64,000 nt of DNA from a virus. The translations under genes and the position numbers were made by a program. How positions within the stretch are numbered: position 1 is the first letter of the stretch; each line of letters opens with the position of its first letter. This document shows, piece by piece, positions 12,536 through 17,788 of the stretch. The stretch lies in IMG/VR virus record IMGVR_UViG_3300027902_000006, positions 64,001-128,000 of that record. The stretch is one strand, 5' to 3'. The notes under the pieces are model-generated. The model saw only the letters and a list, made by a program, of their open reading frames with translations. It was not told where the DNA came from and did no database searches.

Positions 12536-12609
12536 TGGTAGGAGACCCTAGAATCGAACTAGGATGTCAAGGACCAAAGCCTTGTGTTCTACCATTGAAC
12601 TAGTCCCCC
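12536..12609 (-). tRNA. tRNA-Gln(UUG)
   Basis: GGGGGAC TA GTTC AATGGTA GAAC A CAAGG CT-TTG-GT CCTTG ACAT CCTAG TTCGATT CTAGG GTCTCCT A CCA. Confidence 0.9.
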
Positions 12610-13363: not shown

Positions 13364-13438
13364 TGGAGCGGGATGTAGGATTCGAACCTACATTCCCGAC
13401 CGGGCAGGTCGGGTCCTACCAACTTAAATGAATCCCGC
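13364..13438 (-). tRNA. atypical tRNA-Gly(GCC)
   Basis: GCGGGAT/ATCCCGC-T-CCA acceptor, CCGAC CT-GCC-CG GTCGG, GTAGG TTCGAAT CCTAC; weak D-stem, C37, A51-U63. Confidence 0.75.
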
Positions 13439-13514
13439 TGGGGTCCACGGTGGGGCTCGAACCCACAACTCAGAGTTTTAGAGGCTCCTGCTCTACCTAT
13501 TGAGCTACGCGGAC
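13439..13514 (-). tRNA. amber suppressor tRNA (anticodon CUA), Trp-like body
   Basis: GTCCGCG TA GCTC AATAGGTA GAGC A GGAGC CT-CTA-AA ACTCT GAGTT GTGGG TTCGAGC CCCAC CGTGGAC C CCA. Confidence 0.8.
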
Positions 13515-13813
13515 ATTGCAAGTTTAAGAGAACGAAAGACCCTCTCGTTATCTGTGACAGTGGCGAGTGCCGTAACCTCATTACCTATATCAGATTCCTT
13601 GAATGTCACAAAAGGGACGCCAAGGAACTCCAACTCCACACTCCAACGATAGAGCCGCTCTTCGTCTGGTACTCCAAGATAAACAAGAGTACCATTTGGC
13701 CAAGAACTTTTAGGTCCGCGAAGAAGATACTCAGCCACGGCATGTCCAGCTTGGACGGCCTGTTGAGCAACGGATAAATCTTCGCGGACCAAGACATAGA
13801 GTTTCTCATCCAT
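13505..13813 (-). CDS. peptidyl-tRNA hydrolase 2-like protein
   Basis: KLYVLVREDLS..QQAVQAGHA, F.E.DIG..VTALA; start at 13813 from GGAGG SD. Confidence 0.7.
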   Translation of the reverse strand: MDEKLYVLVREDLSVAQQAVQAGHAVAEYLLRGPKSSWPNGTLVYLGVPDEERLYRWSVELEFLGVPFVTFKESDIGNEVTALATVTDNERVFRSLKLAMSA

Positions 13814-14231
13814 TAGACGCCTCCCGAGGAGGATGTAAACGAAGCCATTCCTCATTCGCTTCATCTACTCTTCTTCGGAGGGCGTCTTTTAGTGGATCAA
13901 TTATGTGCCAGTTGGGTTTATTGAATTCACCGGGTTTTTCGATTTGCTCGTAAGAACGACCTCGCACAAGACAATAAGCAATGTGCTCATGTCTGTACTT
14001 TCTCGCTGCTACATAGATTTTCCAGTTAGCGCCGCGATCTTCTTTACGAGTTGTCTTTAGAGTTCGGATACTTCTTGCCATGTCCTTCAATTGTTCTTTC
14101 TTTTCAGTCATCGGATGCACTGTGAATCTCCTTGAATTTTTTTTTTGTATACTACAAGTTGGAGAAGTGCACTTCAAGGAGGTCCACGGATCTACGGTGG
14201 GATTTGTATCTACGTCATTTGAACCTCCCAT
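13806..14231 (-). CDS. conserved phage hypothetical protein
   Basis: R..HIAY..VRGRSYEQIE motif; real start probably near 14111. Confidence 0.55.
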   Translation of the reverse strand: MGGSNDVDTNPTVDPWTSLKCTSPTCSIQKKNSRRFTVHPMTEKKEQLKDMARSIRTLKTTRKEDRGANWKIYVAARKYRHEHIAYCLVRGRSYEQIEKPGEFNKPNWHIIDPLKDALRRRVDEANEEWLRLHPPREASNG

Positions 14232-14563
14232 CTTCCAAGATGGTCTTTGACCTCGAATTTTAGATTTTCGGGTTTCATGGCTCGCTCAACCGATTGAGCT
14301 ATTGTCTCTCCAGTAGAGATTTCCGAGACTTTTATTTTAAGCCATACTTGAAATCTCTGACTTGATATCAAATGACGAAAGGCGATCTGCTTGTTCCGAT
14401 GTTGGGATTTTTCCGACCTACTTTCACCGACAGCACCGGAGACGGGGTGCGTTATACGAACGGCTGTCTCTACTCTATTCTGATGTTGTCCTCCAGGACC
14501 ACCGGCGGTGAATGTCTGGACTTTAAAATCCTTTTTGGTCAGAGTAAAAAGACGCTCTCGCAT
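14210..14563 (-). CDS. stand-alone GGQ peptide-release-factor domain (ArfB/PrfH-like)
   Basis: TFTAGGPGGQHQNRVETAVRITH...SQHRNK..AF; no stop-codon recognition domain. Confidence 0.85.
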   Translation of the reverse strand: MRERLFTLTKKDFKVQTFTAGGPGGQHQNRVETAVRITHPVSGAVGESRSEKSQHRNKQIAFRHLISSQRFQVWLKIKVSEISTGETIAQSVERAMKPENLKFEVKDHLGRWEVQMT

Positions 14564-14579
14564 AGACTTTTCCTCCAAA

Positions 14580-14654
14580 TGGAGCGGATGACAGGAGTCG
14601 AACCTGCAACAATCAGCTTGGAAGGCTGACGTTCTACCATTGAACTACATCCGC
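14580..14654 (-). tRNA. tRNA-Gly(UCC)
   Basis: GCGGATG TA GTTC AATGGTA GAAC G TCAGC CT-TCC-AA GCTGA TTGTT GCAGG TTCGACT CCTGT CATCCGC T CCA. Confidence 0.92.
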
Positions 14655-14820: not shown

Positions 14821-14895
14821 TGGTCGGAGTGGGGCATTTCGAAAGCCCGCCCTCTGCGTCCCAAACGCAGCGCTCTACCTCTGAGCTACACTCCG
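14821..14895 (-). tRNA. tRNA-Pro(UGG)
   Basis: CGGAGTG TA GCTC AGAGGTA GAGC G CTGCG TT-TGG-GA CGCAG AGGGC GGGCT TTCGAAA TGCCC CACTCCG A CCA; U53:U61 instead of G53-C61. Confidence 0.85.
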
Positions 14896-15810: not shown

Positions 15811-16343
15811 CATTTCAACGCATCGAAGTCATTGTGAAATTTAGGCATCTCGGTAATGGGTAGATAATCGCGTATAAATGGAACTACGAAGATTTGGCCC
15901 CCATGAAGTACGATTTTAAAATCACACGAATCTCGATCAAGAGTAGGAGTAGTAATGAGTAAACAATTCGACCTAGGCTGGTAACAATTACGACGCATTA
16001 TAAAAACTTTATGTCCGTTCAGTCGAAACTGCCTACCTCCTAGATGAGTGAGTTGCCCATCAAATCGGTTGAATAGATAACGCAAAAGTGTTTCGATTTC
16101 AGGGATGAATTTGACATTTCCCCAAGGACGAATAGGTTGTTTTAAATGAGCCGGTTTCTTTTTCCCCAACCTATTAAGGAGTTGATGAACATTCTGACGG
16201 GAAGTACCGATCTTCCTAGCAATAGCTGAACATGTAATTTTAGAATCAGTTTCAAATTCCATCAACATGTCCGCAGCAATCTTACCATGGTTATCCCTAA
16301 ACCTTTCTACTAACTCTTCTTCACTCTTCTTCCTAGCGCCCAT
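15810..16343 (-). CDS. HTH-domain DNA-binding protein
   Basis: SAIARKIGTSRQNVHQLL. Confidence 0.6.
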   Translation of the reverse strand: MGARKKSEEELVERFRDNHGKIAADMLMEFETDSKITCSAIARKIGTSRQNVHQLLNRLGKKKPAHLKQPIRPWGNVKFIPEIETLLRYLFNRFDGQLTHLGGRQFRLNGHKVFIMRRNCYQPRSNCLLITTPTLDRDSCDFKIVLHGGQIFVVPFIRDYLPITEMPKFHNDFDALK

Positions 16344-16878
16344 GTGGAATCTCCTTAAGTGAGTTAATTCTGATAACTCGGTGATGGATAGGACGACCCA
16401 AGTTCCAACTTCGGTTGAGAAGATAACACACTAGTCCACTCTCTGCTACTTCATTAGCTGTCCGCAGTCGATCCTCCACTATTCCGTCAAGTTGAAGTTC
16501 ATGAAGTAGTTTGACTTTGTCCTTACTCCGCGCCTGTAGAATCGTAAACTTTAATTTAGGAAAGTTATATATAAGCCAATCGTGAGTAGCAGCAATCAAG
16601 TCAGTGCGCCTAGCAGTAATAAAAAGTACAGGAGAGAACTTATAAATCTCCGACGCTCCTTCGTAGGGTTCTATCCCCATCCAGTGTTGATCAATAATAC
16701 TGAAAAAGTAATCCAAGAAGGGTTCAAAATATCCGGGTTGACAAATCTGTTCAAAGAAATCGTGTCTACTAATTCCTATATCGTCGATATCTACGTGCCA
16801 GTCTCTCCACATATGTTGTCTTAGAGGAGTAGTAACATCTGCTAGAGTTCCATCAATATCGAACGCTAAGTTTTCCAT
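16333..16878 (-). CDS. HAD-family 5'(3')-deoxyribonucleotidase-like
   Basis: FDIDGTLAD, ITAR, K, VEDR, RSWN. Confidence 0.8.
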   Translation of the reverse strand: MENLAFDIDGTLADVTTPLRQHMWRDWHVDIDDIGISRHDFFEQICQPGYFEPFLDYFFSIIDQHWMGIEPYEGASEIYKFSPVLFITARRTDLIAATHDWLIYNFPKLKFTILQARSKDKVKLLHELQLDGIVEDRLRTANEVAESGLVCYLLNRSWNLGRPIHHRVIRINSLKEIPHGR

Positions 16879-17548
16879 TTGTTTTTTGTATCTTTCGTAT
16901 CCAACGATACTTAGGTGGAGTTCTGATCCTCTTTAGTTTCAGTTCCTCTCTACTTTCCGCGAGTGTCTTTCCGTTCCTCTGGGCATATCTGAACACGAAA
17001 CGGCGGTGTCTTCGTCCTCCTCGATCATCTTCTAAATGCCATTCTGGATTTGTCATACCGTGTAAGGTAAAACCACAAGCTTTGTAAACTGTTCCCTCAT
17101 GACCATACTCAGGATCGGCAAAGGCAACAAGGCAATCGTGTTTATAAACCTTTAAGACCATCTTCGCAGTTAGTGCAATAAAGCGTGACAGTGGGTATTG
17201 TAGAGGAGGTTCACTTCTACACATTCTCTTTATCTCCAAGACTCTTTCAACTCCTAAGAAACGTGCTTGATATGGATTTACGCCTATCCCATATACTATA
17301 ATAGCATAAAGTTCAGAATTTGCGTAGAGTCCATAGCAGATATTTTTTCCAGTCGGCATTCTTTTTGAATAGTGCCACGTTTCTACCCACTTTTTTGCTA
17401 CGTTGTGTTCAATGGGTTTAATAAAGAAATGGAGCGGTGAAGTCGGATTCGCGCCGCTATCTTCCTCTTGGGACAGAGGGTATGCTGTCTTTGCACCATC
17501 ACCGCTTATCTCATCCAGTTTTCTCATCACTCGCAACGGTTCCATCAA
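16853..17548 (-). CDS. mom: Mom-family (GNAT-fold) DNA adenine hypermodification enzyme
   Basis: WHYS..MP, YGL, LEIKRM, SRFIA, AFADP..GH.GTVYKACGF. Confidence 0.7.
   Translation of the reverse strand: MMEPLRVMRKLDEISGDGAKTAYPLSQEEDSGANPTSPLHFFIKPIEHNVAKKWVETWHYSKRMPTGKNICYGLYANSELYAIIVYGIGVNPYQARFLGVERVLEIKRMCRSEPPLQYPLSRFIALTAKMVLKVYKHDCLVAFADPEYGHEGTVYKACGFTLHGMTNPEWHLEDDRGGRRHRRFVFRYAQRNGKTLAESREELKLKRIRTPPKYRWIRKIQKTNGKLSVRY
17430..17505 (-). ncRNA. tRNA-Gly-like cloverleaf embedded in the mom-like CDS
   Basis: GCGGTGA/TCACCGC-T-CCA perfect acceptor stem, GTGC/GCAT D-stem, CCTCT-GTCCCA-AGAGG anticodon arm, degenerate T-loop CGCGAAT. Confidence 0.7.
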
Positions 17549-17566
17549 TGTCGAAGGCTAAATTCA

Positions 17567-17788
17567 TTAGTTTGTCGGCCACAGAATTATGGCGTTTTTA
17601 GTTTCTTTGCTGTCCTCCTCTTCGTCTAAAATGTAACCTGAGTAGTCTGACTCAGGTACATAAGTCCCTAGATAAACGTCATGTGCGGGTGAGTAACTAT
17701 TCCCCTCAGAATCGGAAGAAAGAATAACGATGTAGTCATCTGGACACTCATCCAAAATCTCCTGAAGTTGTCTTACAGTAAGCGTCAT
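17567..17788 (-). CDS. hypothetical acidic protein
   Basis: GGGAGGAG SD; DSEGNSYSP motif. Confidence 0.55.
   Translation of the reverse strand: MTLTVRQLQEILDECPDDYIVILSSDSEGNSYSPAHDVYLGTYVPESDYSGYILDEEEDSKETKNAIILWPTN

Follow-up and report, generated by a model that had tools for sequence, protein, structure and literature searches.

Does a phage that encodes a glycine-transferring DNA modification enzyme also encode transfer RNAs (tRNAs) set aside for it? The question is raised by a 64,000-nucleotide stretch of viral DNA (hereafter the window), which spans positions 64001-128000 of the 140,478-bp contig in IMG/VR record IMGVR_UViG_3300027902_000006. It carries two tRNA-Gly genes on the minus strand, tRNA-Gly(GCC) at 13364..13438 and tRNA-Gly(UCC) at 14580..14654, in the vicinity of a mom-like gene. 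An earlier note on this DNA had observed that both tRNAs have the pair A51-U63 in the T stem, and had interpreted them as dedicated glycyl donors that evade EF-Tu and feed Mom. We confirmed the observation, and found the interpretation partly supported. We lean towards the view that the two tRNAs work in translation and do no more than enlarge the Gly-tRNA pool. This view draws on the canonical structure of tRNA-Gly(UCC), the codon use of the phage, the occurrence of the same T stem in phages without Mom, the lack of tRNA-Gly in the phages with the closest Mom proteins, and the existence of a distinct family of RNAs linked to mom. The charging of the two tRNAs, their decoding and their use by Mom are matters that we infer from sequence.

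A rare pair in the T stem of two tRNA-Gly genes

Both genes were called by ARAGORN and encode their own CCA end. Bacterial glycyl-tRNA synthetase (GlyRS) recognizes G1-C72, C2-G71, G3-C70, U73, C35 and C36. We read all of these directly from both sequences, confirming the intact glycine identity described earlier, and because the set is intact the host GlyRS should charge both tRNAs. The T-stem pairs, read out of the bracket output, are G49-C65, U50-A64 and A51-U63 in tRNA-Gly(GCC), and G49-U65, C50-G64 and A51-U63 in tRNA-Gly(UCC), the arms being GUAGG/CCUAC and GCAGG/CCUGU, respectively. The T loop begins with TTC (TTCGA) and the D loop keeps GG in both. The suppressor, Pro and Thr tRNAs of the window have G51-C63, as had been stated. 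The two genes differ in quality. tRNA-Gly(UCC) is the best-scoring tRNA of the window (75.6 bits with Rfam RF00005, for a cut-off of 29 bits), has U33, A37 and a stable D stem, and its minimum-free-energy fold is a perfect, canonical cloverleaf. tRNA-Gly(GCC) is aberrant and has the lowest Rfam score of all window tRNAs (34.0 bits). The D stem, made up of A10.C25, U-A, U.G and U.G, does not appear in its minimum-free-energy structure, nucleotide 26 is missing, and the anticodon loop (C-U-GCC-C-G) places a C at position 37. The poorly paired D stem and C37 had already been noticed, and both hold.

What could these T stems mean for the binding of EF-Tu? We used the additive model of Schrader and Uhlenbeck (PMC3239215), in which increments for the pairs 49-65, 50-64 and 51-63 are added to -10.1 kcal/mol; the free energies given throughout are calculated with it, not measured. 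tRNA-Gly(GCC) has -9.4 kcal/mol, when the mean of the bacterial Gly-GCC class is -11.0, and lies beyond the limit of 1.3 kcal/mol that defines outliers (PMC3239215). tRNA-Gly(UCC), with -10.1 for a class mean of -10.8, is mildly weak and within the limit. Neither therefore shows the tight calculated T-stem affinity typical of its class, and a looser binding to EF-Tu than that of cellular tRNA-Gly is expected of both. The earlier claim that the T-stem signature lowers this affinity is in line with the model, which predicts a strong effect for tRNA-Gly(GCC) and a mild one for tRNA-Gly(UCC).

The pair is rare. It was absent from 101 unique phage Gly-GCC tRNAs, whose free energies average -10.75 kcal/mol (standard deviation 0.33, weakest -10.0), and present in 4 of 124 unique phage Gly-UCC tRNAs (around 3%). 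Among the latter, the 119 computable ones average -10.63 (standard deviation 0.35) and 17% are at or above -10.1. The 29 bacterial Gly-UCC tRNAs that we sampled from one phylum are tighter (mean -11.16, standard deviation 0.13) and all have G-C or C-G at 51-63; since 26 of them have the T stem GU/CG/GC, tRNA-Gly(UCC) of the window departs from the cellular consensus only at this pair. We also searched 185,579 prokaryote species genomes for A51-U63 on the common Gly-UCC anticodon arm, and found a single pattern match, in a 3.6-kb contig with four tRNAs and a phage-derived look (L426). The neutral Gly-UCC arm, in turn, was recovered from 319 of the 401 genomes sampled in one phylum. Cellular tRNA-Gly thus seem to exclude the pair almost entirely. 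As for C37, it is found in 5 of the 1566 tRNAs of the surveyed phage loci; the pattern of the Gly-GCC survey fixed A37 and is uninformative on this position. A scan of viral contigs with a 15-mer of the anticodon arm of tRNA-Gly(GCC) was discarded, as it returned 119 GC-rich chance matches and no tRNA.

These features evoke the non-proteinogenic (NP) tRNA-Gly of staphylococci (NP1-3 of S. aureus and S. epidermidis), which are donors for FmhB, FemA and FemB (PMC7826273, PMC3239215). Their T stem is A49-U65, U50-A64, A51-U63 (PMC7826273), which agrees with the earlier attribution of A51-U63 to them, and their free energy for EF-Tu is -9.5 kcal/mol (PMC3239215). The window tRNAs share with them the glycine identity set and A51-U63, to which tRNA-Gly(GCC) adds U50-A64 and a nearly identical calculated affinity; it thus has two of the three NP pairs, and tRNA-Gly(UCC) only one. 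Both systems also include a GNAT-fold aminoacyl-tRNA-dependent transferase. Yet, NP tRNAs have a TGC or TGT T loop, without psi55, and dihydrouridine at position 19 (PMC7826273), whereas the window tRNAs keep TTC and GG, and tRNA-Gly(UCC) keeps the tight pairs G49-U65 and C50-G64. Furthermore, the carrier here is a phage, and the acceptor would be DNA instead of peptidoglycan.

One or both tRNAs, tRNA-Gly(GCC) above all, might nevertheless be non-proteinogenic glycyl carriers that evade EF-Tu and feed Mom. Momylation would then spare the translational Gly-tRNA pool, in a parallel to the staphylococcal tRNAs and the Fem ligases. The calculated affinity of tRNA-Gly(GCC), past the outlier criterion, and the absence of A51-U63 from other phage Gly-GCC tRNAs favor this explanation, as do C37 and the weak D arm, which suggest poor use by the ribosome. 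The demand might also be large: by a rough estimate of ours, a 140-kb genome has around 80,000 adenines, and momylation could use about as much glycyl-tRNA as the synthesis of virion proteins. The canonical T and D loops, so different from those of NP tRNAs (PMC7826273), speak against it, as does the lack of conserved linkage to mom described in the next section, and we find it unlikely.

The Mom enzyme and the distribution of A51-U63

The earlier note placed a mom-like enzyme 2-3 kb from the tRNAs. The gene in question (16853..17548, minus strand) matches PF25680 (E 3.3e-29, 102.4 bits for a cut-off of 27.1), its product aligns to the structure of Mu Mom (PDB 8bv8, E 1.9e-8), and its stop codon is 2.2 kb from tRNA-Gly(UCC) and 3.4 kb from tRNA-Gly(GCC). 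The equivalents of H58, Y59, R111, S124, D149 and Y159 of Mu Mom are conserved, and the position of R151 is occupied by Glu. This is a true Mom-family protein of the GNAT fold, in a family of glycyl-tRNA-dependent adenine modification enzymes. Mom moves glycine from Gly-tRNAGly onto N6 of adenine in DNA (PMC13219725, Silva et al. 2026), and the premise of the earlier note is therefore sound; the same fact favors a donor role for tRNA-Gly genes in the neighborhood. Mu Mom, however, accepts all three tRNA-Gly isoacceptors of E. coli, and Mu encodes no tRNA (PMC13219725), which argues against dedicated donors. Since Mom accepts any Gly-tRNAGly, the enzyme of the window could use the pool enlarged by both tRNAs, which would also feed translation. 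The window also differs from Mu in having a tRNA-Gly-like cloverleaf in the 5' coding region of mom, to which we return below.

A survey for co-occurrence of mom with A51-U63 tRNA-Gly had been proposed as a check of the donor role, and our comparison of phages gave no support to it. The GU/CG/AU T stem of tRNA-Gly(UCC) is also found in two phages that lack any Mom match, G001 (155 kb, 93% complete) and G002 (160 kb, with terminal repeats, 100% complete), which are the only other surveyed phage contigs with this stem that are long enough to judge. There, the tRNA-Gly sits in arrays of 23-24 tRNAs. A search of G000, G001 and G002 for the Fem-type transferases PF02388 and PF13480 gave no match, and the whole phage studied here shares only a few weak protein matches with G001 and G002. 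Conversely, the nearest Mom homologs (72% and 62% identity) are in phages of 39 kb and 31 kb (G004, G005) that have no tRNA-Gly gene and only Mom in common with this genome. Cultured Mom-positive phages fit the same picture: the tRNA-Gly of Corynebacterium phage Darwin, Listeria phage SH3-3 and Synechococcus phage DSL-LC03 have G51-C63 (-11.2, -10.5 and -10.8 kcal/mol, respectively), and S-SSM7 and phiSHEF2 have no tRNA-Gly. In S-SSM7 (L515, NC_015287.1 216423-217395), the Mom-like gene is directly downstream of a tRNA cluster with Ile, Thr, Arg and Leu, but no Gly. No Mom homolog came up in the surroundings of canonical phage tRNA-Gly genes (234 loci, 2.1 Mb), a result that says little because Mom is rare.

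In these genomes, the idea that the A51-U63 signature tracks with mom is not supported. tRNA-Gly(UCC) is most economically read as a functional elongator whose T stem is somewhat weakened, as it is in phages without Mom. A phage-specific relaxation of, or selection for, A51-U63 in Gly-UCC tRNAs includes such Mom-less phages, and none of the explanations discussed here accounts for it.

A Gly-type RNA inside the mom reading frame

Odd ARAGORN calls of the type 'Glu|Gly' overlap the start of Mom in related loci. Their homolog in the window is a 76-nt tRNA-Gly-like cloverleaf (17430..17505, minus strand), which lies in frame near the 5' end of the mom open reading frame (ORF). Its anticodon loop has 8 nt and one A bulges out of its T stem. 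It scores 82.4 bits with R1, a covariance model of the embedded element; its relatives reach 32-36 bits with the Rfam tRNA model. A pattern built from the anticodon and T arms retrieved 36 viral loci from IMG/VR, and in all of them the Mom core begins directly after the CCA of the element, including in Mom clades only 25-31% identical to the Mom of the window. Around 90% of the nucleotides of the cloverleaf are identical even where the attached proteins are this divergent (L390-L425, L427, L496, L503). The pairing is conserved: among 18 distinct copies, 98.9% of the cells are paired and seven pairs changed on both sides, a level attained by none of 500 shuffles and dropping to around 50% when partners were slid.

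No stop interrupts the reading frame across the element, and the start codon, mostly ATG or GTG, is upstream of it in all loci, generally 10-13 nt away and often after GGAG. An excision of the RNase P type would therefore remove the start codon. This suggests that a transcript may either release the tRNA or be translated, or else that mom is autoregulated through substrate mimicry.

Is the association of mom with such RNAs more general? We searched with R1 over 80 diverse Mom loci (L427-L506), a biased sample, since these are the best matches to the alignment. In 39 of the 80 there is a match within 1 kb of mom, mostly 60-300 nt downstream and on the same strand. The 36 mom-adjacent matches that we aligned all start with GCG and end with CGC; U73 is present in 34 and CCA is encoded in 24. 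Their T loops are unusual: they start with TGC in 14, GGC in 5, TGA in 3, and with TTC in only 8, the others having further variants, whereas 58 of 63 ordinary tRNAs start with TTC. Independently of R1, 11 of the 30 tRNAs called by ARAGORN in the Mom loci are of the Gly type. There are also mini forms of around 69 nt, apparently without D arm (L455, L463, L468, L490-L492, L456, L481, L488), and one locus with two copies of the Gly-type tRNA-like RNA (L432). Five cultured Mom-positive phages have no adjacent R1 match. At the level of sequence, the association with a Gly-type RNA thus covers a large mom subfamily, not all Mom, and our literature search found no mention of a tRNA-like partner of Mom.

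That private Gly-type RNAs are common beside mom favors, in principle, a donor role for tRNAs near the gene, but the two tRNA-Gly genes of the window do not belong to this family. The R1 score alone was rejected as a test of membership. tRNA-Gly(UCC) has 50.5 bits, which is typical of any tRNA-Gly, as canonical ones reach 40-55 bits, and tRNA-Gly(GCC) has 27.7, below tRNA-Thr. Because the score cannot separate canonical from mom-linked RNAs, we inspected acceptor ends, T loops and positions. The window tRNAs share with the family the acceptor end GCG...CGC-U(-CCA) and the NCC anticodon. Typical members are at most 1 kb from mom or inside it, have a GGCGG/CCG(A)CC T arm with a bulged A, and a TGC, GGC or TGA T loop. 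Neither window gene has any of these three features: both are more than 1 kb from mom, lack the bulged-A arm, and have TTC loops. Hence, one part of the earlier interpretation stands, in that Mom can have private Gly-type RNAs with a non-proteinogenic look; the other does not, as the RNA in question is the one at 17430-17505 and not the tRNA-Gly(GCC) and tRNA-Gly(UCC) genes. The role of specific partner of Mom would fall to the RNAs attached to mom, and the mom gene of the window already carries its own.

The history of the locus also argues against a donor role of the two tRNAs. Upstream of mom, a short ORF of 19 codons (18 amino acids and stop; 17511..17567, minus strand), identified by translation and local alignment, repeats the N-terminal NLAFDIDGT of the HAD-like gene at 16333-16878 (minus strand), which starts inside the 3' end of mom and lies just downstream of it. 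Because of this duplicated 5' end of the HAD gene, the tRNA-like element and mom look like a cassette inserted into it. The duplication, together with the sharing of the cassette with otherwise unrelated small phages, suggests that the insertion is recent and that the tRNA island was there before it. A scan for promoters and terminators gave a signal that did not clearly exceed that of shuffled sequences, and gives no indication as to whether mom is cotranscribed with the tRNAs.

The dedicated donors proposed in the earlier note thus find no conserved linkage with mom, keep canonical TTC and GG loops, and would serve an enzyme whose Mu homolog takes any isoacceptor. A supply of glycyl groups for momylation by three RNAs, the mom-embedded cloverleaf and two A51-U63 tRNA-Gly kept off EF-Tu, is in our opinion unlikely too. 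If true, tRNA-Gly(GCC) would be the first phage analog of the staphylococcal cell-wall tRNAs, serving DNA hypermodification.

A proposed translation-support island

If not Mom, what could the two genes serve? The contig (43% GC, 92% complete as estimated by CheckV) has no close relative that we could find among 50,697 deposited phage genomes. Of the seven tRNA genes of this genome, six are in the window, all on the minus strand. ARAGORN identified those of the window as Gln-UUG, Gly-GCC, an amber suppressor (CUA), Gly-UCC, Pro-UGG and Thr-UGU; the seventh, Tyr-GUA, is outside. Both tRNA-Gly are genuine phage genes, and we propose that they belong to an island that would support translation. 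Their partners in it would be tRNA-Gln (12536..12609), the suppressor (13439..13514; Rfam 59.4 bits), tRNA-Pro (14821..14895), tRNA-Thr (19143..19217), a Pth2-like gene (13505..13864, minus strand), and a stand-alone GGQ-domain protein of the RF-1 type, ArfB-like (14210..14578, minus strand; PF00472, E 2.7e-17). The Pth2 assignment rests on a weak match to Pfam PF01981, below the cut-off (E 0.003). tRNA-Gly(UCC) would be a canonical elongator reading the commonest glycine codon of the phage, GGA (40%, followed by GGT 32%, GGG 17% and GGC 11%). Similarly, tRNA-Gln reads the commonest Gln codon (CAA, 60%), and the other phage tRNAs likewise read A-ending codons. The island resembles the tRNA clusters of phages such as T4 and T5 (PMC10264068), in which tRNAs are clustered and co-oriented, sometimes as abutting dimers, and read frequent codons (here GGA and CAA). 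It differs from them in that two of seven tRNAs are for Gly, both with a 51-63 pair almost never found in cellular tRNA-Gly. Weak pairs at this position also occur in tRNA-Gln (U51-A63) and tRNA-Tyr (A51-U63), whose classes have weaker mean affinities for EF-Tu (-9.1 and -9.2, respectively; table of PMC3239215). We found no syntenic relatives of the island, and a peptide-pattern search found no close relative of the RF-1-domain protein in viral contigs; homologs at 59-73% sit in unrelated phages (P22-like and others).

tRNA-Gly(GCC) would be, in the same scheme, a divergent and structurally weakened copy, transcribed head-to-tail with the suppressor. The CCA of the suppressor adjoins its G1 with zero spacer, and the two therefore form a dimeric precursor. 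This arrangement opens an explanation in which tRNA-Gly(GCC) is a decaying duplicate, kept as a tRNA-shaped 3' neighbor of the suppressor: RNase P cleavage at its 5' end would release the mature CCA end of the suppressor, its odd features would result from drift, and tRNA-Gly(UCC) would be ordinary. The absence of a spacer, the lowest Rfam score in the window, the D arm unformed in the fold and the low frequency of GGC, the rarest glycine codon, are all consistent with it. Yet, tRNA-Gly(GCC) shows no damage to its acceptor stem, T arm or anticodon stem, retains the full GlyRS identity set and still encodes CCA, and selection for processing alone would not be expected to keep C35 and C36. We regard this explanation as improbable, slightly more so than a donor role.

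Some phage tRNAs are known to escape anticodon nucleases through mutations in the anticodon loop (PMC10264068). C37 and the altered T stem could, by analogy, be counter-defence changes that escape host tRNA nucleases or toxins in tRNAs that still decode. An unrelated phage carrying a homolog of the RF-1-domain protein (L512, 1058-1132) has a tRNA-Gly(GCC) with C33 instead of the universal U33, and the A51-U63 of Gly-UCC tRNAs in Mom-less phages, hardly ever seen in bacteria, would also fit. The T stem is nevertheless far from the anticodon loop, our analysis identified no nuclease specific for tRNA-Gly, and we give this explanation the lowest probability of all those considered. The acceptor stem of the tRNA-Gly(GCC) of L512 is the same as that of the window.

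Some features of the island stand apart from the question of glycine. The suppressor carries C73, and the Pth2-like ORF ends inside it, at a TAG (13505-13507, minus strand) that makes up its nucleotides 8-10. tRNA-Pro has a U53.U61 mismatch in place of the nearly universal G53-C61, and tRNA-Thr a C50.A64 mismatch. The latter gene is nested in frame in an ORF resembling class II ribonucleotide reductase (19060-21318), where it separates the catalytic part from the Cys-rich ribbon at the C-terminus. A recoding of TAG was considered and discarded, as there is no clear case for it: coding density is 0.855 with code 11 and 0.882 with TAG as sense, and TAG is the stop of 37 of the 179 ORFs of the genome.

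Several observations weigh against a purely translational role. A51-U63 is near-absent from cellular tRNA-Gly and rare in phages, and here it is in both tRNA-Gly of a phage with only seven tRNAs, with mom 2.2-3.4 kb away. The calculated affinity of tRNA-Gly(GCC) equals that of the staphylococcal non-proteinogenic tRNAs (-9.4 and -9.5), and its C37 and missing D stem are hard to square with efficient decoding. Finally, the three computable tRNA-Gly genes found close to mom in other loci belong to the weak tail, too (-9.7, -10.1 and -10.1 kcal/mol). tRNA-Gly(GCC) could be a specialized donor, a decaying processing partner of the suppressor, or a defence-evading variant.

The transfer of glycine to DNA by Mom was demonstrated only recently, in work that treats the tRNA as a scavenged host resource (PMC13219725). 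A large mom subfamily comes with a Gly-type tRNA-like RNA of its own, which lies next to mom or, in this phage, within its reading frame, and these RNAs often show the TGC T loop that marks the staphylococcal non-proteinogenic tRNAs. If they are private glycyl donors, or regulators that mimic the substrate, they would represent a second and independent split between translational and non-ribosomal uses of aminoacyl-tRNA. They would also provide a clean system in which to study how the avoidance of EF-Tu evolves, with the two free tRNA-Gly genes of this phage as ready substrates for comparison with the RNAs linked to mom.

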